Assembly (NCBI GenBank): GCA_043827405.1
Contig: JBDRPD010000007.1
Location: forward strand, 1-27,038
Reading direction: 5' to 3'
Length of the DNA: 27,038 nt
Origin: Elusimicrobiota bacterium
Lineage (GTDB): Bacteria > Elusimicrobiota > Elusimicrobia > UBA1565
Part shown: positions 4,286-23,308 of the stretch, piece after piece
Layout of the letters: each line of letters begins with the position of its first letter
Numbering within the stretch: the first letter of the stretch is position 1
The notes under the pieces: model-generated
The model's input: only the letters and a program-made list of their open reading frames with translations
Told to the model about the DNA's origin: nothing
Database searches by the model: none
Made by a program: the position numbers and the translations under genes

Positions 4286-6970
4286 ATGAAGCGAATCCTG
4301 GCTGCGAGTACGGCGCTGGCGGTAATGTTCGGCCCGGTGGCCGATCAAGCGCCCGCATACGCCGCTCGTTTTGTCGCGCCGGTCGGGCAGACGGGAAAGG
4401 CGCCGCGTATGCCCGTACCGCCCGCCGCTCTCACCGGGCGAACGGCGGCCGTCGAAAGCTTGCAGAATTTTAACGCCTTTACCCTGCAGTCGGCCCTCCC
4501 CGGCATAGATCCCGCCGGGACCAACGCGCCGGTCAAGCGGAGCATTAAGCCGCTCGCCATTTTGCCCCGAATACAAGTCATGTCCGCAAGCGGACAGCGA
4601 ATCGTCATACCCGCCCGGCAGCGGCAGGCGATGCAAAAGACGCTAAATAAAGTAAAGCAGGCCGCCGGCCGGCTGCCCGCCAAGGGAAAAGCCGCGAATA
4701 TGAGCGCCGCGGACGCCAAACTGCACGGCTCCAGACTTTTCGACGCCTTCCGCGGCGCGGCGGATGAGGCGGATATGCGCGGAGTCGACACCGCCGGCGG
4801 CACGGAGCGAACCGCTGCGCGCCGTTCCCGAATCGTCCGCCTGCTGACGGCGCCGCTGGGCCGCTTGTTTTCAACCGAGCGCCGTACCGGCGAAACCCGA
4901 GCCCCCCCGGTTCCCAGAGCCCGCACCCGTTTCGACCGCGATGCCTATGGTGGCCCGCGGCCGCTGAATCTGCGGGCCGCTAAAAAGTCCGGACGCTTCG
5001 CCGGGCTCCGCGGGTTGTTCGGCACAATGAGGAACTACGTTCTTTTCAGCGCCAAGTGGGCGCTGAACATGACCGGCATCGCGACCGTAATCGGCCTTAC
5101 GGTCAAACCCATCGCCGCGCTGCTTCCCTGGCAACTCCATGTATCCGACACGTTTTTAAACCTTACCGGGCGCATCGAACTGCTGACCGGCCTCGGCCAT
5201 CAAGGCGTCGTCGATGCGGTCTCGTCCGCGCCTGGAGCGTTTCTCTTCCGAGATATGCCGTATATGGTCGGCATGGAGGAGATCACCTACCGCCTCCTCG
5301 GCTTCGGCCTGACATTCCTGGCCCTCGCGGCGCTCAAACCCCTAATGACGCGCCTGCAGAGCTTCCTTAAGGACCTGCCGGACCTGTTCGGTCTCCCCAG
5401 CACGGGGATCCGGCTGGCGCGCCTGCTCGGCGCGCTGTCCGGCCTCGCCTTCCCGGCGGCGCTGCTGCTCTCTTCCTTCTCATTTGCCGCCGCGCATATC
5501 GCGGCTTGGGGCTTTGGCCCCGCAGTCTACGCCGTCCACTTGGTGCTCGGCATGGCCCTCGCCTATCTCGCCTACCGGACGCGCGGAATACTCGTACCGC
5601 TCCTGACCCACTTCCTATTCAACCTCGGCACGATCACGGTCGGGGTCCTCCTGCCCCTGGCGCTGCTGCCGGCAGCCTCATCGGTCTTGATGACGCTGAC
5701 CGGCGTCTTCAGCATAGCCTTCCTGTGGTACAACTACCGGCTGCACCGCAAAGCCAAGGCGGCGGCTCTCGCCGAGGCGCGCGGCCTCGCGCCCCCGGCC
5801 CGCGGGGCCCGGTGGCGCCGCGCCCTGACAGGACTTCTAATCATCCCCCTTATGCTCGGCGCTTTTTACGTATTTTCTCCGGGCAACGCCTCCCGCGCAA
5901 ATGCGATACGTCAGAGAAGCGCCTATATGGCCTCCGTTCAGCACCGAAATGGAATCAAGGACCTCCGCCAAGTCGGCCCGTTCATGCTTGAGGAGCTGCC
6001 GGAGCTGCTCAACGTCCACACCCCGAAAGCCGCCGGCGCCGCGGAGAGAAAGGACCTCAGCACCGTCGAGATCACCCAGCGCGCCAAACCCGCGATCGTC
6101 ATGGTGCGCACCGACAAGGGCATGGGGACCGGCTTCATCATCGACGCCGGCGGGCTGCTTGTCACCAACGCGCATGTGGTCTCGCTCGGCGTCGAGGCAG
6201 CGCAAAGCGGACCCAAAATCTCCCGCCGGCACGTCGACCGAGTCATGATCCTCTTCTCCAATGGACGCGAAATCCCGGGCCTCGTCGTCGGCTACAATGC
6301 GGATAAGGACATCGCGCTGGTCGCGCTGCCGCCGAATCCGCTCGGCTGGCCGACTGTTGAAATCGGCGACAGCTCCCTGCTGCAGGAAGGGGAGCGGATC
6401 GTCGCCATGGGACATCCGCGGGGCCTGCCGTTCTCCGTCTCGGAAGGCATCGTCAGCGGTCTCGATTTCCGCCACAACGGCTTCGTCGGCTTCATCCAGC
6501 ACGACGCGTCCGTCAACCCGGGCAACTCCGGCGGCCCGCTGTTCAACGCCCAAGGGGAGGTCGTCGGCATCAACTCGCTGATTATGTCTTCCGGCGGCGG
6601 CTTTGACGGCATCTCCTACGCGATTTCCGCGGCTGATCTGCAACAAGCCCTCGCGCAGTTCAAGAAAGTCCGCAATATCGATACCGGCTGGATGGGCGCG
6701 ATCTTCTATCCGGCCAGCCCGGACGCCCCCGGCTACGGCCTCTATGTGGACGCGGTCCGGCCGGGCTCCCCGGCGGCGCAGGCCGGCCTGCAAGCCGGCG
6801 ACATCGTCCTGGAGATCGACGGCCAGAAGCTGGCCAACAGCCCCCAGCACGCCGCCGCCCAGGTCGCCAAAACACTGCGCGAAAAAATACCGTCAGATGA
6901 GGCGGTGCTCGCGATCTCGCGCGGCGGCGATATCCAGACGCTGCGCATCAGCTTGGGCGCCCGCGACTAG
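4286..6970 (+). CDS. Fusion: signal peptide/leader + CPBP (Abi/CAAX-type II) intramembrane glutamic protease + HtrA/DegP-type trypsin-like serine protease + PDZ
   Basis: CPBP motifs MEEITYR, FAAAH, THFLFN among several TM helices; trypsin triad TNAHVV, DIALV, GNSGGP; PDZ GSPAAQAGLQAGDIVLEIDG. Start at ATG 4286 gives signal-like MKRILAASTALAVMFG..AYA. Confidence 0.85.
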   Translation: MKRILAASTALAVMFGPVADQAPAYAARFVAPVGQTGKAPRMPVPPAALTGRTAAVESLQNFNAFTLQSALPGIDPAGTNAPVKRSIKPLAILPRIQVMSASGQRIVIPARQRQAMQKTLNKVKQAAGRLPAKGKAANMSAADAKLHGSRLFDAFRGAADEADMRGVDTAGGTERTAARRSRIVRLLTAPLGRLFSTERRTGETRAPPVPRARTRFDRDAYGGPRPLNLRAAKKSGRFAGLRGLFGTMRNYVLFSAKWALNMTGIATVIGLTVKPIAALLPWQLHVSDTFLNLTGRIELLTGLGHQGVVDAVSSAPGAFLFRDMPYMVGMEEITYRLLGFGLTFLALAALKPLMTRLQSFLKDLPDLFGLPSTGIRLARLLGALSGLAFPAALLLSSFSFAAAHIAAWGFGPAVYAVHLVLGMALAYLAYRTRGILVPLLTHFLFNLGTITVGVLLPLALLPAASSVLMTLTGVFSIAFLWYNYRLHRKAKAAALAEARGLAPPARGARWRRALTGLLIIPLMLGAFYVFSPGNASRANAIRQRSAYMASVQHRNGIKDLRQVGPFMLEELPELLNVHTPKAAGAAERKDLSTVEITQRAKPAIVMVRTDKGMGTGFIIDAGGLLVTNAHVVSLGVEAAQSGPKISRRHVDRVMILFSNGREIPGLVVGYNADKDIALVALPPNPLGWPTVEIGDSSLLQEGERIVAMGHPRGLPFSVSEGIVSGLDFRHNGFVGFIQHDASVNPGNSGGPLFNAQGEVVGINSLIMSSGGGFDGISYAISAADLQQALAQFKKVRNIDTGWMGAIFYPASPDAPGYGLYVDAVRPGSPAAQAGLQAGDIVLEIDGQKLANSPQHAAAQVAKTLREKIPSDEAVLAISRGGDIQTLRISLGARD

Positions 6971-8447: not shown

Positions 8448-9041
8448 CTAGTGGCAGGCACCGAAAAAACCGGTGCCGAAGAAGCTCGTCCCCTCTTTAG
8501 TCTTCCCCATCTTGCGGTATTGGCCGATCAGGGCCTCGAAGGGATCCTTCGGCATCATGAAGTAGCGTTTGCGCTCCCGGTCCTTCTTTTTCTTCGGCTG
8601 CTGGTAGATCACGGTAAACGAGGTCTGCTCGATCAGTTCGCACTCGGTGCACTTGGTCTTCTTCATCAGCCACTGCGCCTCATCCTCGAACACCTCAAAG
8701 AATCCAATGCCCATCAGCAATCCGACATAGTCCTCCGTCTCCCGCTTTTGCTCGCACTCCAGGATGGGCTCAAGGCCGGCGCGCCGGATCGGCGGCCGCC
8801 TTTTCCCGTCCGCGGCCCGCCGCAGCGCGTCGAGCTCGTCCTGCCGGGCACGGCAGCGCGCGCGCAAGTGCCGCGGCAGCCTGCTCGCGTCGACCGCCAT
8901 GAACTTCGGGATCAGCTCGGCCGGCAGGGCCGGGGTCTCGACTTCAAGGAAGCGCTCGACGAAGGCGGCGAGGTCGGGCACGGCCTTCTCGGCGCGAAGC
9001 GGCGGCGCGAACAGCAGCAGGGCGATGAGCGCTAATGGCAT
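8448..9041 (-). CDS. Exported hypothetical protein, GACH-terminal paralog 2
   Basis: Start at ATG 9041 gives signal peptide MPLALIALLLFAPPLRA; aligns along its length with 9032-9691. Confidence 0.8.
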   Translation of the reverse strand: MPLALIALLLFAPPLRAEKAVPDLAAFVERFLEVETPALPAELIPKFMAVDASRLPRHLRARCRARQDELDALRRAADGKRRPPIRRAGLEPILECEQKRETEDYVGLLMGIGFFEVFEDEAQWLMKKTKCTECELIEQTSFTVIYQQPKKKKDRERKRYFMMPKDPFEALIGQYRKMGKTKEGTSFFGTGFFGACH

Positions 9042-9691
9042 GCCCCGTTGAACGAGCCGAAGAAGTTCGTGCCGCCCCCGCTGCCCGTATTCCGATATGC
9101 CGCGATGATCGCCATCCAGGGGTCGTTGGCGCTGAGAAAATTGTAGCGCACCAGCCCGTTCTTCTTGCCCGTCGGGACAAGCGTCACCTTCAGGGAAGAC
9201 TCGACCATCAGCTCGCATTCAGAACACCGCGTCCGCTGCATCAGATGGTTGAGCTCGTCGTCGCTAATCTCCTCAAAACCCATCTGCGTCATCATTTTCA
9301 CATACTGCAGCGTACCCTTCTCCGGCTCGCATTCGGCAGGGGACGGCGCCTCCTGGCCGGCGCGGCGGATAGGCGCCTTCCTCCTGTTGGCCGAAATCTT
9401 TCTCAGCGCCTCCAGCTCCGCCTTCTTCGCCCGGTGCTGAACCCGCAGCTTCAACGGCAAAGAGCCCGGATCGATCGCCATAAAGCGCGGGATCAGCGTC
9501 GGGTCAAGTTCGGAAGTGTCGGCTTTGATGAAGTACTCAACAAGCTTCACCGTGTCCTTGTCCGCGGCGGCTTTCGGGCTTGGGGCGGCGGGGCTCCCGC
9601 TTTTCTTCGCGCGCTTATTTCCGCCCTGCGCCGGCGCCGCGGACACGGCGACGACCAGGAGCAGCGCCGATATGCATGCCGGCCATCGCAT
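9032..9691 (-). CDS. Exported hypothetical protein, GACH-terminal paralog 1
   Basis: Signal peptide MRWPACISALLLVVAVSAAPA; shares LIPxFMAxD, PIRRAG, CxECEL and FFG..GACH with its neighbour. Confidence 0.8.
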   Translation of the reverse strand: MRWPACISALLLVVAVSAAPAQGGNKRAKKSGSPAAPSPKAAADKDTVKLVEYFIKADTSELDPTLIPRFMAIDPGSLPLKLRVQHRAKKAELEALRKISANRRKAPIRRAGQEAPSPAECEPEKGTLQYVKMMTQMGFEEISDDELNHLMQRTRCSECELMVESSLKVTLVPTGKKNGLVRYNFLSANDPWMAIIAAYRNTGSGGGTNFFGSFNGACH

Positions 9692-9742
9692 ACTTAGACT
9701 ATAACAGCCCGGGACGCCAAAAGCCATGGGAGCGGGCGGGGG

Positions 9743-12400: not shown

Positions 12401-13495
12401 TTAGGGAGCCGCGGTCCCGGATGATTCGCCGGGCGCTTTCGCGTACAGGCCAAGATCGCTTTGATAGTACTTGAACGTAATAACCCCCAGCTGCGAGATA
12501 AATTCCTTCGCTTCCCCGTAGCCGCGATTGCGGCCCGTCAAAACGGTAACGGCATAGTCGCCCTGCGGCGAGAAGATTACCCCCGAGTCGTGGCAGGCCC
12601 GGCGCAGCAGGCCGGTCTTGTGGGCGATGCTCCAGCCCGCCGGCAGCTTCTTGGCCAGCCGGTAACGGCGCGGATAGCGCCCTTTCAGGATTTCCAGCAT
12701 AAGCTCGCTGGCGAAGCGCGTCACCATTTGGCCCCGGTAGACCTTCTCCATAAGAAAGGTCATCTCGCGCGCGGTTGTGTAGTTTTCATAACGCACCCGT
12801 CCGCTCTGCAGGCTCAGCCCCTCGGGGTAGAGCTCGGTATAGACCAGCCCCATCCGGGGGAACTGGTTCTGCATATAACCGACCCCGACCTCATTGAGCA
12901 GTATCCGCATCGCCGTATTGTCGGAGTTGTGGATGAGCTTATCGAGGAGCGCGCGCACGGTAAAGCGCGTCCCGTCCCGCTTCCATTTGATCCGTCCCGA
13001 ACCGCCCATGCGGTTGCGGCGGCTAAGCTTAAGGCGGGAGTTGAGCGACAGCTCGCCGTTGTTGATCTTTTCCATCACGCCGATCATAATGGGGACCTTA
13101 ATCAGGCTCGCCGAAGGAAACAGATCGTCGGCATGATAGCTCCATTCATAGCCGCCGGATAAATCCTTAATATGAATCGCAACCTGGGCCGAAGTGCGGG
13201 CGACGTACTGCTGCGCCGCGTACTGCAGGTCTTCTGCCATGCGCGCAAAACGAATGCGCGCCGGATCGTCCTTGTCGTCGGGGATAACGACGGCCTCTTC
13301 TTCGTCGTCATCGTCGCGCACCAGATCGGCGCGGTCCTCCACGACATGCTGCGCGCTGGGAGACAGCCGGGACTCGGTATAGGTCAGGTAGACAACCGGA
13401 AGCAGCACCAGGATCACCGCAAACGGGATGCCCGCCCTTTCCGAAGGCACCCAGCTCAGCGTCGTGATGACGCGGTCTACGAGCTTACGACGCAT
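12401..13495 (-). CDS. Membrane-anchored serine hydrolase, class A beta-lactamase / PBP-A fold
   Basis: SxxK (ASLIK), SDN and KTG motifs; N-terminal TM helix and acidic linker. Confidence 0.88.
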   Translation of the reverse strand: MRRKLVDRVITTLSWVPSERAGIPFAVILVLLPVVYLTYTESRLSPSAQHVVEDRADLVRDDDDEEEAVVIPDDKDDPARIRFARMAEDLQYAAQQYVARTSAQVAIHIKDLSGGYEWSYHADDLFPSASLIKVPIMIGVMEKINNGELSLNSRLKLSRRNRMGGSGRIKWKRDGTRFTVRALLDKLIHNSDNTAMRILLNEVGVGYMQNQFPRMGLVYTELYPEGLSLQSGRVRYENYTTAREMTFLMEKVYRGQMVTRFASELMLEILKGRYPRRYRLAKKLPAGWSIAHKTGLLRRACHDSGVIFSPQGDYAVTVLTGRNRGYGEAKEFISQLGVITFKYYQSDLGLYAKAPGESSGTAAP

Positions 13496-16276: not shown

Positions 16277-19200
16277 ATGAACCCAAACAAGTTCCTAGTC
16301 AGTCTCTTCACCCTTGGATTTTTCACCACCGCCGTACATCCGCCGCAAGGAAGCTGTACGGCGCTCCGCGCGGGAAGCGCGGGGCGCGCGGCACGGGGAG
16401 CTCCCGTCCGCGCCGTTCCCCCGCTGCTGCAAAACAACCTGAAACCCGTAACAAATCCCGCCTTCACCGGCGGGATCGGTTTTTCTGTGCTGCCGAAACT
16501 GGAAACGATTTCACCTTCTCTCGGCCTGCCCTCCACAGAAAACAACGTGACCGTCGCCCCCTTCGCGGCGAAGGTCTCGGTCGGCGGGCAAACGGTCGGC
16601 ATCGGCGGCGGTGTCGCCGTGCATGCGAACAAACAAAACAAGAAGGTCGGCGTCGCGGCTTCGGCGCGCGAGTTCGCCGGAAGCTTGAAAAAATCCGGCG
16701 TCAGCGCGGCCGGTAAAATCCGCGCCTTTTTCGACGGACACCTCAATGCCGATAATACCAACACCGCCGTCGGCGGCGACGGAGCCTCATTCGCTCCCGC
16801 TTCGCGCGGCCCCCTCAATGAAGTCGTCTTTCGCGCGCTAAAAGACGGCAGCGATATCCGCACCAACCTTCCGCGCACGTTGGTCATCAACGACGCCTAC
16901 ATTAAAGGCGCCCCCGCCGCGACCGTCAGCCGCCTGCAGACGCTTATTAATGAGGGAGTGCACCTCGTCATCCTCACCGACCGCGCGGACCGCGGCCCCG
17001 GATCGATCGATGAAATTCTGCTCTCCAAGCTGACGCCGTCCAAGTCCAACCCGATCACCGTCGCCAGTCACGCCGGCGCGCGTATTTCCTTCGTCGAGGC
17101 CGGCGCCAAATGGAAGGTCGCCAGCGAAGCCGGCGCCTTTGAGACCCGCGAGATCAGCCGCTTCAGCGAAATCGCCGCACGCGTAAACCGCGCCGCCAAG
17201 CTCAGAAACGTCCCCGCTCGCACCGAGTCCCCCGCAAGCGGCGATACGCTGTCGGTCACCTTCAGCCTAAAGGGCCGGGACCGCCAGGGCGACGTCGCAC
17301 GCAAGCGTCGGGCCTTCATGCTGAAGTTCAACCAGGCGATGAAAGCGGCGCGCCTTCCCTACCAGATGAAGGCGCATCCGAGCGATGAGAGCGCCGCCGT
17401 CATCCAGGCGATCACGCCCCGCCTCGCGCTCGGACGCATCGATCGCGAACTCGGCAAGCGCTTCGCGGACGAAAACCTTTCAGCCAAAGGCAATGAAACC
17501 ATGGTGCTGCTCGATGCCCGCGGCTCCGAGCCGCTCATGCGCACGATCACGGCCGATCCCGAATCGGTGCCCGGCCTGTTCCGCGGCGCCTCGGTAGTCG
17601 ACGCCGGCGACGCCGGCGCGCAGGCGACGGCGCTCGGCGCGGTAACTGAAGCCTCCGAGCTTAACCCGGTCGATGTTTCAATGAGCGATATGCGCCAGTA
17701 CCTCGACTTTTGGCGGCCCGTAGTTGGGCGCAGCGGCAAAACCCCGAAGCAGAGCGCCGGCACCTCGTCGGGCCGCTACGGGCTCTATACCTGGCAGGTG
17801 CTGCACGATCTGCTGACCGACTTCTACGTCGACGCGGCACGATCGGGCAAGAAGTACACCAACGTCAAGAAATTCCTGGACGCCCTGCGTATGCGCTGGG
17901 CCGGAAAAGCCAAGGACGCGTCGTTTGAGCGCTACCGCGGCACTCAGGGCGGCAAGGTCGCCGACGCCGCCTACCTGGGCCACGCCCTGCGCTTCGCCGG
18001 CAACTTCTGGCAGCGCGAGATCGGCAACTACAGCCTCGCCCAGCAGGAAATCCGCGAAGACCTCATGACCGAGGGCAAGGTCTATACCAAAGTCCCGCTG
18101 CGCTCGCCGTTTACCGGCCGCAAATACGCGCTCGGCGTATCCGTGGACCGCGTTATGAAGCTCGATACGGCCAATGGGCGCGAGCTCAACGCCACGGTCT
18201 ACCGCTTCGGTAAAGAGGGCGCCACGGACGGCGATGAGGCGCAGGCCCGCGCCGTGGCGCTGGCCACGCTGCGCGGCTACGGCCGCAAAGGGCTCGACCT
18301 TAAGTGGCACCAAGGCTCGGCGCAGGGGCCGGTCCTCTCCCGCATCACGGTGCAGATCGAGCATCTAAACCGCCACAATATGTACGACTTCACGCCGGAC
18401 GATCTGCTCAAGATCGAAGCCGACGGCTCGATCTCGCAGGGCTCGGCCGCGCTCAAGCTGGTCAACGAAATCGAATCCGCGCAGGCCGACTTCAAATACC
18501 TCGCCTCGCAGAAGAAAATGCGCCGGCTCGCCGGCCCGCAGGAATGGGACGGCGACGAGTGGACGCAAAAGGGCGACGCCGTGCGCGAGCTGTTCGGCTC
18601 CTACTTCCCCAACGCCCCGACCGCGGAGCGCCTGCGCCCGTTTTTGAGCGAGGCCGAAGCGCTGCGCCCGAAGACCGCGACCCCGCGCGACCCGGTCGAG
18701 GTCTTCTCCGCTCCGATAGCCTGGCCCCAAGGCAAGCCGCCGGCGCCGATCGACGAAGAAGGATCGCAGATCGAGGAAGATCTCGAAGCCTCGCACCGCG
18801 TAGTCTTTATTGAAGACATCTTCACAAATCCCGCTGCAGACGAAGTCGTCGACCGCATCCAGCGCCTGATCGACGCCGGCGCCCATGTCGTCTTCATGAC
18901 GGCGCGGCCGCATAAGGGCGAGAACTCGGCCGACACCGTGCTGCTCGCGCGCCTCAAGGCCGGCCGCGCCAACCCCATCATCGTCACCAGCTACAACGGC
19001 GGCCGCATCGCGCTGCATTCGCGGGCAAAAGACCCCAAAGCCTACATCCCCGACAGCCGCGCTTTTACCGCGGCCGCGATCAAAACCTTTGACGCGACGG
19101 CCGGCGAGCTGGCGGCCGAGTTCGACCTAGCGCTCGAAGCCGAGGCGGTGCCCTCCAAGGGCTCGCCGTTCCAGTACAACCTCTGGATTCCGCAGTCGGT

Positions 19201-20557
19201 CCCCGCCGCCGAGCTCGCGACGACCCGCACCCGGCTCATAAAGCGCTTTAATAAATCGCTGGCCGCTGAGGGGCTGGAGTACTCGATCCAGGCTCATCCG
19301 GGTCATCCGCGGCAGCTGTGGATCCGCTCGCAGCCGATGCGCCTCTCGCTCGACCGCGTCTTCCAGGCGCTCGATCAGCGCTTTAAAGGAGAGGACTTGC
19401 TCGCTCATCCCGACCAGTTTCTGGTCATCGGCAACTCCAAGCGCTCGCTTCACCTCTCGAAAGCCTGGCCCAAGCAGGCGACGTTCCGTGCCGCCCAAAA
19501 CGACACCGAGATCAGCAACCATCTGGGCGGCGTGCTCGGCAACCGCAAGCGGGACACCGTCGGCGTCAAGCTCGGCGAGATCCGCTCCTACGATGAGTTC
19601 TGGGAGCCGATGCTCGAGCGCCGCGCCGGTCACTTCGGCACGGAGGCCTCGCAGAGCCACCGGCTGAGCGAAGAGGACCGCCGCTACCACGGCCCGCTGG
19701 CAATGTTCACCGGCTCCATCATGTACCGGCTGATGCCCGAGCTCTTTGAAGCGATCTGGCGCGGCCAGGACCGCACGTCGACCAAGACGCAGGGCCTGCA
19801 GCGTATTCGTCAGATGTGGGCCTTCCCTGAACGCGAAGGCGTCTTCGTCAGCAAGCGACAGGCGTCGGTCATGAACGAGGAGGGATGGAAGAGCCGTTCG
19901 CGCGGCTACCTCGAGCGCGCGCTGACCTTCTTTAGCGAGATCTACGACCGCGCCTTCGAGAACTACAGCGAGGCGGCCCAGGACATCCTGCACAATATGG
20001 CCGGCCTCACCACCGACCGGCAAAGCCTGGTTACTTTGGTCTTTAAGGCCAGCGGCAAGCTCTACAAGGTGTTCACGCGCCTGCCGCGGCTGATGAAGCA
20101 CGATACCGAGGACGGCCGCGTCCTTTCAGTCATCGCCTACCGCACCGGCAAGGAGCCCTTCGAGGGCGACGGCGACGGGGTCTACGCCAAGACGCTGGCG
20201 ATGACCATGCTCGTCGGCTTCGCCCAGCCCGGCCCCGACCGCCGGTGGCATGACGGCTGGCCGCATGGCCCGAAGATCGCCAAGCTGCACGTGCGCCTGG
20301 AATACAAGCAGGGCGCGCGCGACCTCTACTTCGATCCCAACGACTTCTTCCGCATTCAGGCCAACGGCAAGTACCGGCAGGGCGTCGCGGTTCAGGAAAT
20401 CGCCAATATGATCGAGCGCATGCGCGCCGATGATGAGTTCCAGGAGCATTTCAAGGCCGAGAACGAACAGGCGACCGCCGAAGAAATCAAGGAAGCCAAG
20501 AAGAAAACAAAGGGGACCGGCAAGAAGCCGGTCGACAACCGGAGGGTAAAGAAATGA
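16277..20557 (+). CDS. Large signal-peptide-bearing protein with two tandem [degenerate HAD-IIB + inactive PD-(D/E)XK nuclease-like] modules
   Basis: 1426 aa with GAGAGGA SD. Internal duplication from ~aa 199 and ~aa 840 (e.g. GVHLVILTDR/GAHVVFMTAR, NPITVASHAGARI/NPIIVTSYNGGRI, VYRFGKE/AYRTGKE, WHQGSAQGP/WHDGWPHGP); homologous to the downstream gene. Confidence 0.7.
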   Translation: MNPNKFLVSLFTLGFFTTAVHPPQGSCTALRAGSAGRAARGAPVRAVPPLLQNNLKPVTNPAFTGGIGFSVLPKLETISPSLGLPSTENNVTVAPFAAKVSVGGQTVGIGGGVAVHANKQNKKVGVAASAREFAGSLKKSGVSAAGKIRAFFDGHLNADNTNTAVGGDGASFAPASRGPLNEVVFRALKDGSDIRTNLPRTLVINDAYIKGAPAATVSRLQTLINEGVHLVILTDRADRGPGSIDEILLSKLTPSKSNPITVASHAGARISFVEAGAKWKVASEAGAFETREISRFSEIAARVNRAAKLRNVPARTESPASGDTLSVTFSLKGRDRQGDVARKRRAFMLKFNQAMKAARLPYQMKAHPSDESAAVIQAITPRLALGRIDRELGKRFADENLSAKGNETMVLLDARGSEPLMRTITADPESVPGLFRGASVVDAGDAGAQATALGAVTEASELNPVDVSMSDMRQYLDFWRPVVGRSGKTPKQSAGTSSGRYGLYTWQVLHDLLTDFYVDAARSGKKYTNVKKFLDALRMRWAGKAKDASFERYRGTQGGKVADAAYLGHALRFAGNFWQREIGNYSLAQQEIREDLMTEGKVYTKVPLRSPFTGRKYALGVSVDRVMKLDTANGRELNATVYRFGKEGATDGDEAQARAVALATLRGYGRKGLDLKWHQGSAQGPVLSRITVQIEHLNRHNMYDFTPDDLLKIEADGSISQGSAALKLVNEIESAQADFKYLASQKKMRRLAGPQEWDGDEWTQKGDAVRELFGSYFPNAPTAERLRPFLSEAEALRPKTATPRDPVEVFSAPIAWPQGKPPAPIDEEGSQIEEDLEASHRVVFIEDIFTNPAADEVVDRIQRLIDAGAHVVFMTARPHKGENSADTVLLARLKAGRANPIIVTSYNGGRIALHSRAKDPKAYIPDSRAFTAAAIKTFDATAGELAAEFDLALEAEAVPSKGSPFQYNLWIPQSVPAAELATTRTRLIKRFNKSLAAEGLEYSIQAHPGHPRQLWIRSQPMRLSLDRVFQALDQRFKGEDLLAHPDQFLVIGNSKRSLHLSKAWPKQATFRAAQNDTEISNHLGGVLGNRKRDTVGVKLGEIRSYDEFWEPMLERRAGHFGTEASQSHRLSEEDRRYHGPLAMFTGSIMYRLMPELFEAIWRGQDRTSTKTQGLQRIRQMWAFPEREGVFVSKRQASVMNEEGWKSRSRGYLERALTFFSEIYDRAFENYSEAAQDILHNMAGLTTDRQSLVTLVFKASGKLYKVFTRLPRLMKHDTEDGRVLSVIAYRTGKEPFEGDGDGVYAKTLAMTMLVGFAQPGPDRRWHDGWPHGPKIAKLHVRLEYKQGARDLYFDPNDFFRIQANGKYRQGVAVQEIANMIERMRADDEFQEHFKAENEQATAEEIKEAKKKTKGTGKKPVDNRRVKK

Positions 20558-23235
20558 CGACAAATATCATGCTCCGGTCCCTGCTCGCAGTCGCCATCGC
20601 CGCCAACAGCATTTCGCCGGCCTGCGCCGCCGCCATGGTGGTGCCCAAGCTCGCTCCCGGCGTCTCGCCGTCGGTCGGCGCCGCGGGAGCGGCCGGCATC
20701 GCCGCCGGAGGCATGCGCCTGCATAATACAACGCTCAGCCCGTCGCTGAGCGCCTCGCTTCCGACGCTCGGCAATTCGCTGGCGCGGCCGCAGAACCTGA
20801 ACAGCGAAGTCGCCGTCAAGCCGCGGGCGCTACGGCACACCGCGGTGCAGGACGTTAACGGCCGCGTCGCCCCGTCCAAACACCAGGGCAGCCTGGGACA
20901 GGGGACCCCCTATAAGGCCGCCGCCGGCAAAAGCGAAACGGTACGCCACACCGTAGCCGCCGTGCATCAGGGCCGCGGCGGCAAAATAAATGCCGCCGCG
21001 CTGGGCAGCCTCTTCGAGCAGAGCGTCGGCCGGCGCGGCGTGGTCAACGCCGCCGACAATCTCGATGTCGACGCCGCCGGGGATGCCGTCTTTGCGGCCG
21101 AGGCCGCAGCCGATGTCGTCCCGACCGTCGAAGAAGACGCTCTTGACCTCTGGGTCGGCAAGACCGCGCAGAAGGGAATTTTCGACTCCAAGATCTCGGC
21201 GTCGATTCGCCCCATCAATAATACCCGCAGCGAGTGGTTTTGGGGACAGTATCAGAAAAAGCTGCCGATCCGCGTCGTTTCCGGCGGCCGCGTGCTGTTT
21301 ATCACCCGCATCGTCAAGGCCGGCACCAAGAAGATCAAGGCGTTGACCCTCGATGACTTCAGGGCCTACTACGGCGCCCGCTCCATCGCCAAGCGCGCCG
21401 GCGAGAACGACGCCAAGCAGCTGGCGCGCCTGCGCCGCAAGCTTCTCGAAGAGATCAAGTGGAAGTCCCAGCGCAAGATCAACGCGCCCAAGGTCATCAG
21501 CGAGGAAACCAAAGTCCGGGTGCTGAACTTCCTGCCCTACAACCAGGCTCGCGAACTGCCCGAAAACGGCATCGAGAAGACGCCCGAAATCCGCGCGCGC
21601 AAAGAGCTGGCCGTCCCCGCGGAGCTCAAGGACCTGCAGCGCATGCTGCCGCGCCTGGTGCTCTTCGATCTGCGCCTCTACGGGGATCGCATCCCCTTCG
21701 ACGTGCTTGAAGACATGGGCAAGCTGCAGAAGGCCGGCGTCACCTTCGTCTTCCTCTCCGACAAGACGCAGGATGAAGTCGAGAAGATGATCCGCCGCGA
21801 CACCCCGGCGCAGCAGCAAAACGAGATCACGCGCTGGAAGCTGCTGAGCCTCTCCAACGACGGCAACACCCTCTACGGCTTCTCCGGGTCCTTCGAGGAG
21901 CTCAAGGCCTCGCGCAAGTTCGCGGCCGACGAGCGGGAAATGCTGAAGTACGCGGCCCAGGCCGCCGCCCCCGAAGGCATTATCGTCGAAGACCGCGGCT
22001 ACGTCCTTTCGCTCCGGCCCAAGCGCGGCGTCGCCATCTCCGCGCTTAAAAAATCGATGCAGCGCCAGCTCGACCGCTTCGGCATGCCGGACGGCTCCTA
22101 CGCGCTGACCGTCGGAGAACATGAAGGCTCCCCGGTCGTGCGGGTCCGCCCGACCACGCTGAGCCGCTCGTTCGGCCGGCTGATCAAGGACCTGCAGGTT
22201 GAAGAAGGGCTTTACCTCAACGAGCAGAATATTCTAACCGTCTCGGATGACGCGGAGCTCCACGCCGCGCTCCCCAACGCCATGCACGCGGGCCCGGTCA
22301 TGCCGCAGGCCACGGCGCGCGAGGACTACATCGAAACCGCGCTGGCGGCGATGCTCGGCTCATACCGCCACAACCGGCAGGGCGATCTCGCGGCTTCGGC
22401 CTCGTCGATCAAATCCTTCAAGTTCAAGCGCTTCGGCGGCGGCGGCTTTGACTACCGCATCTACATGCTGATGGGCCACGTCGCCCACACCGCGCTCGAC
22501 TGGGCGATCATGAAATACAACCAGGCGGGCGAGCTGCCGCCCTACGAAGAGCTCATCGCCAAGTCGCGCGAGATTTGGGAGAAAGAGCAGATCGGCGTGA
22601 CGACGAACCTGCTTGAGAAATCGCGCGAACGCACGCTGGGCTACCGCGACTCGATGGAAGCGCGCATGTTCACGATGTATCAGGAGCTCGAGCGCACGCT
22701 CAAGATCTACCCCATCGCGCTGGGGACCGAGCTGCCCAACCTCATGGTCCTCGACCGCTACAACGCCTCCGGAGAGCAGACCCACCGCGACATCTTCCGC
22801 GGCCTCTACGATCTGGTTCTGGCGCGGAAGGTGGAGGGCGGGCTCGACGTCCTGGTCGCGGACTTCAAGTCGGGCCAAACCCCGGCGCTCCAGCATATGG
22901 CCAAGGACACGCAGGTACTGCTCTACGACTACTTCTCCAAGGTTATGTGGCCGACGATCACCGTGCCGTACTCGCTGGCGCACAAGCTGCAGAAGGTCGT
23001 AAGCCGCTACGTCGGCTTCCTGTATCCGCGCGGCATGCAGGGCGTGACGATCACCGAGTTTGACCGCCTGTTCTTCGAGAAGTTCCTCTTCAATATCATG
23101 AACCGGATGCGCAAGCACAAGCGCGTGCTGACCGAAGACATGATCGCGGCGGAGACCAAAAAGGCCGAGCGCGAGGCGCGCCAAGCCGCCAAACAGTCCG
23201 CAGCCGAAAAGAAGACTCCCGCGAAGAAGAAGTAG
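20554..23235 (+). CDS. Signal-peptide-bearing protein: ASCH-like + degenerate HAD-IIB + RecB/AddB-type PD-(D/E)XK nuclease
   Basis: ATGA-coupled to the upstream gene. Nuclease motifs SASSIKSF, MGHVAH, TELP, RGLYDLV, ADFKSG, QVLLY; HAD-like RLVLFD, GVTFVFLSDK, SNDGN, ILTVSDD; ASCH-like KISASIR...KALTLDD...VRVLNF. Confidence 0.75.
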   Translation: MTTNIMLRSLLAVAIAANSISPACAAAMVVPKLAPGVSPSVGAAGAAGIAAGGMRLHNTTLSPSLSASLPTLGNSLARPQNLNSEVAVKPRALRHTAVQDVNGRVAPSKHQGSLGQGTPYKAAAGKSETVRHTVAAVHQGRGGKINAAALGSLFEQSVGRRGVVNAADNLDVDAAGDAVFAAEAAADVVPTVEEDALDLWVGKTAQKGIFDSKISASIRPINNTRSEWFWGQYQKKLPIRVVSGGRVLFITRIVKAGTKKIKALTLDDFRAYYGARSIAKRAGENDAKQLARLRRKLLEEIKWKSQRKINAPKVISEETKVRVLNFLPYNQARELPENGIEKTPEIRARKELAVPAELKDLQRMLPRLVLFDLRLYGDRIPFDVLEDMGKLQKAGVTFVFLSDKTQDEVEKMIRRDTPAQQQNEITRWKLLSLSNDGNTLYGFSGSFEELKASRKFAADEREMLKYAAQAAAPEGIIVEDRGYVLSLRPKRGVAISALKKSMQRQLDRFGMPDGSYALTVGEHEGSPVVRVRPTTLSRSFGRLIKDLQVEEGLYLNEQNILTVSDDAELHAALPNAMHAGPVMPQATAREDYIETALAAMLGSYRHNRQGDLAASASSIKSFKFKRFGGGGFDYRIYMLMGHVAHTALDWAIMKYNQAGELPPYEELIAKSREIWEKEQIGVTTNLLEKSRERTLGYRDSMEARMFTMYQELERTLKIYPIALGTELPNLMVLDRYNASGEQTHRDIFRGLYDLVLARKVEGGLDVLVADFKSGQTPALQHMAKDTQVLLYDYFSKVMWPTITVPYSLAHKLQKVVSRYVGFLYPRGMQGVTITEFDRLFFEKFLFNIMNRMRKHKRVLTEDMIAAETKKAEREARQAAKQSAAEKKTPAKKK

Positions 23236-23253: not shown

Positions 23254-23308
23254 TTGACAGCCCATGGTCTCCATGCTATATTAATGACTGTCGAGTCAGT
23301 CATTAATA
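23254..23308 (+). promoter_or_regulatory. Sigma70 promoter overlapped by a TetR operator
   Basis: TTGACA (23254), 17 nt, TATATT (23277). Perfect 12-bp inverted repeat TATTAATGACTG-N6-CAGTCATTAATA at 23279-23308. Confidence 0.9.

Follow-up and report, generated by a model that had tools for sequence, protein, structure and literature searches.

Genes A and B, which overlap in a 27,038-nucleotide stretch of an Elusimicrobiota genome (contig JBDRPD010000007.1; hereafter the window), encode paralogous, leader-tagged proteins, of which B is most likely a metal-dependent nuclease of the RecB/AdnA type, judging from its motifs and predicted structure. That B is active and A is a non-cutting partner seems quite probable from the residues at their nuclease sites. 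The fuller explanation, in which the two proteins make up an exported, helicase-free nuclease that likely serves nucleotide harvest, is one we favour tentatively, at a little under even chances. RecB-family nucleases are known from repair motors, CRISPR adaptation and phage recombination; a layout in which a crippled phosphatase fold replaces the helicase and an export tag is added would be new. No paper on the pair was found, in agreement with the first-pass annotation of this DNA, which knew of no such system, and the pair is apparently undescribed.

Organization of the gene pair

The two plus-strand open reading frames (Table 1) are real and, as annotated at first, translationally coupled: the stop codon of A and the start codon of B overlap as ATGA, and GGAGG lies at 20541-20545. 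An assembly artefact or shadow reading frame was rejected because the repeats of A are 27% identical and the genes are under purifying selection. All 11 motifs quoted in the first-pass annotation were found where it had placed them. Pfam assigned no family to A or B of the window itself and gave no helicase match. Comparison with the sequences of solved structures was equally uninformative, the best match being a ribosomal protein at E 0.004 that was put down to chance; as annotated, no helicase gene was called within the window.

Table 1. Features of the A-B locus, with the evidence or content of each.
Feature	Position	Strand	Basis or content
Gene A	16277..20557	+	1426 aa; leader, two pseudo-HAD plus pseudo-nuclease modules, basic tail
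A leader	16277..16846	+	Signal-peptide-like N-terminus; low-complexity Ala/Pro/Gly/Ser; FFDG at residues 151-154
Module 1 pseudo-HAD-IIB	16868..17662	+	Homology to module 2, intact-HAD profile match, alignment
Module 1 nuclease-like domain	17663..18526	+	Homology and alignment; fold inferred from module 2
Module 2 pseudo-HAD-IIB	18791..19549	+	Predicted model, pLDDT 90
Module 2 dead nuclease-like domain	19550..20461	+	Predicted model and alignment
A basic tail	20462-20554	+	Lys/Arg-rich C-terminus; K+R count
Gene B	20554..23235	+	893 aa; leader, ASCH, remodelled HAD, candidate live nuclease, basic tail
B leader	20554..21123	+	Signal-peptide-like N-terminus ending P-A-C-A, then low-complexity region
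ASCH-fold domain of B	21136..21558	+	About residues 195-335; predicted-model fold match
Remodelled HAD-IIB of B	21643..22371	+	Predicted model and residue counts
RecB-family PD-(D/E)XK nuclease of B	22375..23124	+	Predicted model, motifs, family Pfam
B basic tail	23125..23232	+	Lys/Arg-rich C-terminus; K+R count
Strong sigma-70-like promoter	23254..23282	+	TTGACA-17-TATATT, 11/12, with TG; 0.1 expected by chance

B is predicted to be a RecB-family nuclease

The RecB family is described as having motifs I, II and III (D-x-K) together with QxxxY (PMC2602864), and B carries all of these through H645, E726, D753, D770, K772, Q787 and Y791. K772 is kept in 55 of 56 distinct B sequences and the other six residues in all 56; this set is separate from the alignment behind the B fold, which had 44 rows including two intact HADs and one truncated row. 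The modelled C-terminal domain of B matches AdnA best among the matches listed (9np6_A; Z 15.9, rmsd 3.4, 209 aligned), bearing out the restriction-endonuclease-like fold annotated for this region. Further matches are Dna2 (Z 13.2), ACE1 (9iab; Z 13.0), AddB (Z 11.5) and RecB (5ld2_B; Z 9.3), and TM to PDDEXK_1 clusters in the Atlas is 0.72-0.74. By these models, the best matches, among those listed, are the channel-type domains of AdnA, Dna2, AddB and ACE1. PDDEXK_1 (PF12705) was found in 18 of 20 B-family members, the window's own B being unmatched. The B nuclease has no cysteines, and the four-cysteine 4Fe-4S signature (Cas4/iron-staple) is absent from the mature part of all 24 B sequences surveyed, which is Cys-free.

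ASCH, HAD and nuclease folds make up the modelled regions of the pair throughout, and no SF1 helicase or helicase-like domain was found among them. For B, the first-pass annotation had the HAD and nuclease right but overlooked the ASCH domain, whose predicted model matches 3s9x_A (Z 11.0, rmsd 3.2, 126 aligned), YqfB (9kyf_A; Z 10.3) and 2z0t_A (Z 10.0). This domain has a net charge of +16 and no Pfam match at the sequence level.

The predicted HAD of B matches 4bnd_B (Z 14.5, rmsd 4.3, 213 aligned) and retains D372 and S/T402, while L536 replaces the motif III Lys and motif IV is degenerate. The statement that these HADs lack DxD is true for the window, whose B has R374, but not for the whole family, since the nucleophile Asp372 is kept in 55 of 56 B relatives and the full DxD in 16. 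At the motif III site, 51 of the 56 have L536 and none has Lys. The marks of an active HAD-IIB enzyme (DxD(x)T; motif III Lys with GDxxxD) are thus incomplete in the pair, although the Rossmann core and C2 cap are present in the models of B and A module 2; the neighbouring intact HADs of the lineage have DxD(x)T, the motif III Lys and motif IV.

The nuclease-like domains of A are non-canonical and conserved

The two repeats of A are homologous, as annotated (about 27% identity; local alignment score 526, z = 78, where shuffled sequences average 41). Their homology to a third copy in B, also annotated, is weak pairwise (z = 1.6 and 5.1) but holds between family profiles (hhalign probability 99.5, E 1e-22, 455 columns). 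The predicted model of the module 2 pseudo-HAD matches 4bnd_B (Z 17.6, rmsd 3.6, 215 aligned), and that of its nuclease-like domain matches AdnA (9np6_A; Z 12.1, rmsd 6.2, 222 aligned), ACE1 (9iab_B; Z 11.0) and Dna2 (Z 10.0). With Z of 12-18 the models of copies 2 and 3 support the HAD-IIB and PD-(D/E)XK folds proposed for them; the nuclease fold of module 1 is assigned by homology. A profile built from local, intact HADs finds the module 1 pseudo-HAD at E 1.5e-7, and in the alignment this domain lacks the motif III Lys. No Asp stands at the HAD nucleophile position of A, module 1 included, in that alignment, and Hydrolase_3 was weakly matched in 9 of 19 A modules (best E 0.003).

At the positions of B's motifs, module 1 has S468-x-S470, H510, E599, D624 and Q656, with V641 and R643 at the D-x-K site. 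Module 2 has Y1150, D1247, P1270, A1287, R1289, Y1303 and L1307 at B's catalytic positions. The two "dead" copies therefore differ: none of the His/Glu/Asp/Gln metal-site residues of copy 1 is present in copy 2, except for an acid at the Glu position. Across 66 A modules, the position equivalent to D770 is never D or E and that equivalent to K772 is always Arg. Missing both the acid and the lysine of motif III, the A modules lack the active PD-(D/E)XK signature, and A, as judged by these residues, cannot cut by canonical chemistry. The division into one live and two dead copies made in the first-pass annotation is supported, as one apparently live and two non-canonical nuclease sites.

Despite the lost D-x-K, the A modules are under purifying selection. 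The nuclease-like domains of A are 74-78% identical to their counterparts in a related genome (G180), and for this one pair of genomes dN/dS is about 0.19 and 0.22, with 0.23 for B. That module 1 acquired its residues from B by gene conversion was rejected because module 1 scores lowest on the B nuclease profile and is nested in the A clade; both trees were quick trees without bootstrap. Module 1 offers a testable case of a pseudo-enzyme that has apparently regained active-site residues after duplication.

A and B occur together, normally one to one

A survey of the kind proposed in the first-pass annotation found both genes in 63 of 101 genomes of the order, A without B in none, B without A in one and neither in 37; the counts include related genomes and are not independent observations. 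The pair is single-copy, with A immediately upstream of B in 55 of the 63 genomes, and one genome (G351) has a natural A-B fusion behind a single leader. Since the B part of this fusion reads DYRTG (Lys to Arg), the fusion is possibly a decaying form. When relatives of P0095, the single-gene form, were sought, only P0095 itself came up. Strict co-occurrence, fixed order and fusion agree with the RecB/RecC-like pairing of an active and an inactive subunit suggested at first.

A could instead be an inhibitor or ligand-gated switch, with pseudo-HADs that set B free on sensing a phosphorylated ligand. The gene order, with A encoded first and overlapping B, suits such a switch, as do the invariant Asp and T/S-x-R retained in the HAD domains and the rarity of B without A (1 of 64 genomes with B, where B lies at a contig end). 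Orphan immunity genes, however, occur without their partner toxin, unlike A, which never stands without B (0 of 63). A also has its own leader and basic tail, and by alignment its invariant Arg faces the substrate pocket, which fits nucleic-acid binding. A switch is in our judgement distinctly unlikely.

The first-pass annotation further proposed a 2+1 pseudo-trimeric ring like lambda exonuclease, and three modules of shared fold are indeed encoded in this genome and six others. These seven assemblies, from three genera of one family, are the ones with a double-module A; the other 56 of the 63 genomes have one module, so that gene counts favour 1:1, and the G351 fusion fixes 1:1 in a single chain. 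By sequence, the double A is the product of one derived duplication; the three modules seen here reflect local duplication within a partnership that is normally one-to-one. The fusion also speaks against an A2B variant built from separate chains in one-module species. A ring seems very improbable. Lambda exonuclease was not among the best 50 matches listed in either fold search, a listing that a true likeness could fall outside. Complex predictions for B (HAD plus nuclease) with A module 2 scored 0.38, 0.00 and 0.00 in separate runs, against a mark of 0.32, a spread that bears on binding in neither direction.

Conserved neighbours of the pair are transporters, peptidases and ligases. A leader-tagged MFS/HAD family is present in 26 of 37 loci, an M28 peptidase in 16 and an intact DxDxT HAD in 16. 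The HAD-MFS family is linked to the pair only loosely: it occurs in 56 of the 64 genomes with B but also in 18 of the 37 without, and is not adjacent in the window's genome. Two other candidate links were dropped. clpC flanks the pair in only 6 of 37 loci, all of one family (f1), and TetR/efflux genes were found in none of the first 19 loci and have their own promoter in the window, which likely drives them and marks the end of the A-B unit.

Defence systems include both stand-alone PD-(D/E)XK nucleases and sensors of the ASCH/PUA type, and ACE1, a structural relative, is described as working in defence. An intracellular anti-phage or anti-plasmid role for A-B nevertheless seems most improbable, given that none of eight proteins matched PADLOC-DB 2.0.0 (2023 library) at E 0.1, that the neighbours are of the kinds just named, and that both chains have export-like leaders.

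Both proteins belong to a cysteine-free, leader-tagged class

Cysteine is nearly absent from the pair, with one among 37,852 residues of A and none among 16,800 of B, compared with 0.81% across the genome. A leader profile scored above 20 bits in 53 of 1173 large proteins of the genome, versus 7 in each of two controls. Of 41 leader proteins, 33 are Cys-free after residue 40, and cysteine makes up 0.04% of leader proteins versus 1.03% of soluble proteins without a signal. A and B belong to this class. In Sec substrates, cysteine exclusion and P-A-x-A are taken to fit export with cleavage. Sec/SPase I export was assessed by pattern and hydropathy checks, with cysteine exclusion as an indirect sign: the P-A-x-[A/G/S] pattern of the B leader recurs in most homologues, while the hydrophobic stretch of A is weak (best 19-residue mean 1.03) and a clear cleavage pattern is absent. 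The leader profile, cysteine and pattern checks are consistent with the export-like leaders first annotated on both chains, and we consider the pair somewhat more probably exported than retained.

The leader also heads MFS and ABC transporters, ClpB-type AAA, MoxR, ATP-grasp and starch synthase proteins. Plain secretion is doubtful because ATP-using enzymes and transporters need a cytoplasm-like compartment. The leader might thus be an anchor or sorting tag, with the pair facing its own cytoplasm or an internal compartment and processing incoming or damaged nucleic acid beside leader-tagged transporters. ATP-dependent and polytopic passengers, together with the weak hydrophobic stretch of A, are in keeping with an anchor; near-total cysteine exclusion and the conserved P-A-x-A pattern instead fit cleaved export. 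Repair is already served by a separate AddAB-like pair on contig C96 of the same genome, so the A-B nuclease would not be needed for it. We think an anchor rather unlikely.

Basic tails distinguish the pair within the class. The last 30 residues of the window's chains contain 10 and 11 K+R, and tails at or above the genome's 95th percentile (9 K+R) occur in 17 of 23 B and 23 of 29 A homologues, versus comparable tails in only 4 of 41 other leader proteins. Such tails could target the nucleoid or nucleus if the pair were an effector delivered into another cell, bacterial or protist, whose genome it disabled, and two loci match the TLC/NTT nucleotide-carrier family, as none of 14 control genomes did. 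The tails, however, equally fit plain nucleic-acid binding, and a single-copy pair under purifying selection is unlike fast-evolving toxins. No injection needle was identified, as neither TssC/VipB nor FliR/SctT was matched in this 98%-complete genome; three secretins are present. An effector of this kind is improbable.

Proposed mechanism and role

In the exported-nuclease explanation that we favour, A and B would be paralogous subunits of one helicase-free complex, normally 1:1, in which B would most likely thread and cut single-stranded nucleic acid while its basic ASCH domain and tail hold the substrate. Since its invariant Arg sits where B has the catalytic Lys, A likely holds on to the backbone of the opposite strand or passes substrate to B, in the way that the dead domain of RecC does for RecB. 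The HAD folds, descended from a local HAD family that is still active, would serve as scaffolds or bind phosphate. In this lineage A duplicated internally, the front copy then diverging and now carrying four metal-site residues.

A leader specific to the lineage would carry both chains across the inner membrane, and their target would be foreign nucleic acid. They would be part of a set with leader-tagged phosphatases, transporters and proteases, most likely used to harvest nucleotides. Elsewhere in the genome RNB, endonuclease I, EEP and nucleoside kinase/deaminase domains are leader-tagged as well. If the pair is exported, a nutritional role, host- or prey-directed uses included, has about an even chance. 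A bolder version, possible but unlikely, has the whole large, cysteine-free, leader-tagged set of nucleases, phosphatases, proteases, ATPases and transporters delivered into both the cytoplasm and the membrane of a different cell along a route not yet described, with A-B as its dedicated genome-digesting machine; to this it would add, with the same reserve, a helicase-free RecB/RecC-like enzyme on phosphatase scaffolds and a partly rebuilt metal site in module 1.

The pair would make it possible to examine biochemically, and directly, how a dead nuclease partner functions when there is no motor. It also offers a way into the lifestyle of an uncultured lineage that is common in groundwater: if the pair acts beyond the cytoplasm of its producer, other cells are probably what these bacteria feed on or live with.

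Comparison with known systems

Among the matches listed, the closest structural relative of the nuclease domains of B and A module 2 is AdnA, and B shares the complete motifs II, III and Q-x-x-x-Y of AdnAB/AddAB (9np6, 6ppu, 3u44). In those enzymes both subunits are described as cutting, a motor unwinds the DNA and many have a four-cysteine Fe-S cluster (PMC3321194), whereas the pair has one apparently dead subunit, no motor and no cysteine. ACE1 (9iab), similar in fold to B and A, is described as a helicase-free, Argonaute-associated ssDNA endonuclease of the Cas4 family, a channel-type D-DxK nuclease that works as half of a heterodimer and whose activity the partner alters (PMC12094033). It differs in its Fe-S cluster, Argonaute partner and defence role, where the pair has a dead paralogue and the window no Argonaute or Cas gene.

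The HADs of the pair share the Rossmann core and C2 cap (Z 14-18) with HAD-IIB enzymes (Cof, PMM, trehalose-6-phosphate phosphatase) and with the regulatory pseudo-phosphatase domain 5hus, but have a shorter flap after motif I, have lost the motif III Lys and are fused to a nuclease fold; their nearest sequence relatives are the intact leader-tagged HADs of the same lineage. Secreted nucleases of the predator Bdellovibrio, described as exported and degrading foreign DNA (PMC7925074), offer at most a functional analogy. RecB/RecC of RecBCD is likewise a pair of paralogues in which the RecB-family nuclease is live in one subunit and dead in the other, where it serves a non-catalytic purpose (PMC1185551). 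The pair departs from it in having no helicase, in its N-terminal HAD-IIB fold with an ASCH domain added in B, in its export-like leaders and in the invariant Arg that A carries at the Lys site.

Conservation and domain architecture of the A-B pair

The open reading frames of A and B overlap by ATGA, and a GGAGG site lies upstream of B. Every motif that the first-pass annotation had quoted for them was found where it had been placed, as were the proposed three homologous HAD-nuclease copies, two in A and one in B. Alignment of the two A repeats gave z = 78 (200 shuffles); the B copy resembled them only weakly in pairwise shuffle tests (z = 1.6 and 5.1), but a profile of A modules (19) aligned with a B profile (20 proteins) over 455 columns with a probability of 99.5.

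Features of the window and of related loci
Feature	Location	Strand	Description
A	within 16277-23235	+	long ORF, 1426 aa
B	within 16277-23235	+	long ORF, 893 aa
Protease fusion	4286-6970		HtrA/Do-type protease (trypsin + PDZ) behind a CAAX/Rce1 membrane protease domain; A/B-type leader, cysteine-free after residue 40
Tandem paralogues	8448-9727		two small proteins, about 42% identical, signal-like starts, C-x-x-C-x-x-C-E motif; no Pfam family; xerD and recA lie upstream
Beta-lactamase-like protein	12401-13495		membrane-anchored, class A (Beta-lactamase2, E 1e-49); clpC immediately upstream, a link recurring in 4 related loci
HAD-MFS fusion	L060 (G000:C13:81491-85291); L087:124-3909		leader-tagged intact HAD-IIB phosphatase (DxDxT, GD..D) fused to MFS transporter
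Giant ClpB-type AAA proteins	L083 (G000:C36:3498-10172); L085 (G000:C50:198922-207285)		leader-tagged, cysteine-free; intact HAD domain also in L083
A-B fusion, genome G351	L087:4904-9187		one 1427-aa protein, one leader, A module + full B

No Pfam family matched the window's own A and B proteins. Residues 191–870 of B were considered through an AlphaFold2 model (pLDDT 88), in which a fold search identified an ASCH domain (Z 11.0 to 3s9x_A), a HAD-IIB domain (Z 14.5 to 4bnd_B) and a RecB-family nuclease domain matching AdnA (Z 15.9, rmsd 3.4, 209 residues), Dna2 (Z 13.2), ACE1 (Z 13.0) and AddB (Z 11.5). For A module 2, the model (pLDDT 90) shows a HAD-IIB fold (Z 17.6) and a nuclease fold like that of B (Z 12.1 to AdnA), so the predicted structures bear out the nuclease assignment in B and in A module 2. 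Viral PD-(D/E)XK proteins also headed the Foldseek matches to the module 2 model.

B occurred in 20/301 genomes sampled across the phylum, 19 of them in the window's order, and A in 69/301 sampled from the class, with four matches outside the order, two of these weak. A profile search over 1.84 billion representatives gave 68 hits, and homologues bearing names all came from Elusimicrobia or Elusimicrobiota, apart from one labelled just 'bacterium'. With weak cross-hits excluded and only strong matches (E below about 1e-19) counted, the order's 101 genomes comprise 63 that encode both proteins, none with A alone, one with B alone and 37 with neither. In 55/63 A immediately precedes B; in the other eight the genes are on separate contigs, with the upstream end of B <300 bases from the contig end in seven. 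The A-B pair is real and conserved.

A two-module A was confined to 7/63 genomes, all from genera g1, g3 and g99 of family f1, and in the module tree, where the module-1 and module-2 clades are each supported, they trace to a single duplication. As the G351 fusion likewise joins one A module to B, the conserved unit at sequence level is one A module plus one B, and the 2+1 ring envisaged in the first-pass annotation is unlikely. The nuclease of this fusion has D-Y-R in place of D-x-K, the sole such case among 56 B sequences. The pair of G216 (L038), the only genome of family f11 and outside the order, nests among in-order sequences, and genus g8 sequences split over two distant clades; these placements hint at lateral transfer.

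Live, dead and possibly rebuilt sites

Across 56 distinct B sequences, H645, E726, D753, D770, Q787 and Y791 were invariant and K772 was kept in 55. None of 66 A modules, which include some taken from partial proteins, held an acid at the D770 position, and all had Arg at the K772 position. Since related enzymes that lose motif III residues cut poorly or not at all (PMC2602864 and PMC12094033), A is presumably non-cutting by analogy. Compared with the G180 orthologue, its nuclease-like domains show 74% and 78% identity, at least as well conserved as the live domain of B (70%), and their dN/dS in this one pairwise comparison is near 0.2; they therefore have a function.

One live and two dead copies had been claimed. 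The live site and the missing acid in A agree with this, but the two A copies are not alike. In module 1 of the window's lineage (11 sequences), His, Glu and Asp occupy B's motif positions in 11/11 and S-x-S/T in 10/11, with Gln or Asn at B's corresponding position; module 2 shares none of these residues, apart from an acidic one where B has the Glu. A quick tree of nuclease domains, including 6 of the 11 module-1-type sequences, nested this type within A on a long stem, sister to modules without most of its motif residues, which suggests regain after duplication, long-branch error being possible. A further reservation about this reading is that P0059, a protein with a single module, carries His, Asp and Asp as well.

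The HAD domains, described initially as lacking DxD, have no motif III Lys in either protein; B retains Asp372 in 55/56 and DxD in 16/56, so 'remodelled' suits its domain better than 'dead'. When intact leader-tagged HADs found at these loci were built into a profile, it matched A modules (E down to 1e-13), which points to such HADs as their origin. P0095, a lone leader-bearing protein with a HAD, a live RecB-type nuclease, a duplicated cap segment and no ASCH, may lie near the common ancestor of A and B; a search for its relatives found none. Two other proteins contain the C-terminal half of the dead nuclease domain of A: P0083, where it is fused to helical repeats, and P0060, where it is duplicated. 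The B homologues P0010 and P0022 share an extra C-terminal domain of ~100 residues with a K-K-I-E-Y-R-T motif, which, going by that motif, may be a second ASCH domain. In L089 (G350), the match to A module 2 is split into two segments (profile positions 8-99 and 191-582) although the frame is open throughout, which suggests that an inner stretch of the HAD domain has been deleted.

Leader-tagged proteins and genomic context

The B-leader profile scored >20 bits in 53/1173 large proteins of the genome, compared with seven each in C-terminal and shuffled controls. Among 41 leader proteins chosen by eye from the top 90 on their signal-like start, 33 lack cysteine after residue 40 (0.5 expected); the A and B families are nearly without cysteine. 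A Pfam scan of 40 gave matches in 30, comprising transport domains (MFS, ABC, symporter), proteases (M48/M50/S8/S41/CAAX), nucleic-acid, nucleotide and other domains (RNB, endonuclease I, EEP, HD, nucleoside kinase/deaminase), and AAA, MoxR, ATP-grasp, amylases and starch synthase.

Around the pair (37 loci), the commonest neighbours were a leader-tagged MFS/HAD family (26), a mixed ATP-grasp/M48/MFS cluster (22) and M28 peptidase (16), with an intact HAD in 16. The HAD-MFS fusion family, matched in 74/101 genomes of the order, occurs in 56/64 genomes with B and 18/37 without; in the window's genome it is on another contig than A-B, and its tie to the pair is loose. This genome also has three secretins, two TLC/NTT-like loci and, elsewhere, an AddAB-like pair; TssC and FliR/SctT were sought there and gave no match.

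Proposed mechanism and comparison with known systems

Beyond the residue patterns, the mechanism is conjectural throughout. B would most likely cleave single-stranded nucleic acid inside a channel, like ACE1 and AdnA (PMC12094033), and A would most likely hold or guide the substrate through an Arg-bearing pocket, much as RecC's dead domain guides a strand (PMC1185551). The package would probably act outside the producer's cytoplasm, where leader-tagged phosphatases and transporters would receive the nucleotides it releases. What chiefly complicates this picture is the presence of the same leader on transporters and on enzymes that use ATP, which means that its destination must be cytoplasm-like: either another cell or, as a sorting-tag explanation that draws on the same proteins would have it, an inner compartment of the producer itself.

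Searches by lineage and by domain combination, mostly outside subscription journals, found no published description of the pair, which is apparently undescribed. The main text of a groundwater Elusimicrobia survey (bioRxiv 10.1101/765248) contains neither 'nuclease' nor 'secret', and its supplements may list these families; a giant-gene preprint (10.1101/2023.11.21.568195), in its accessible text, mentions the phylum for giant proteins only. One free-living member from amoeba culture is a diderm that lives as an aerobic heterotroph and is auxotrophic for seven amino acids (PMC9476967). The new findings are that A and B co-occur 63/0/1, that they are naturally fused in one genome, that A was duplicated once, in one lineage, and that the module 1 site appears partly rebuilt. 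The A-B pair would work like RecB/RecC, but motor-free, and belongs to none of RecBCD, AddAB and Cas4.
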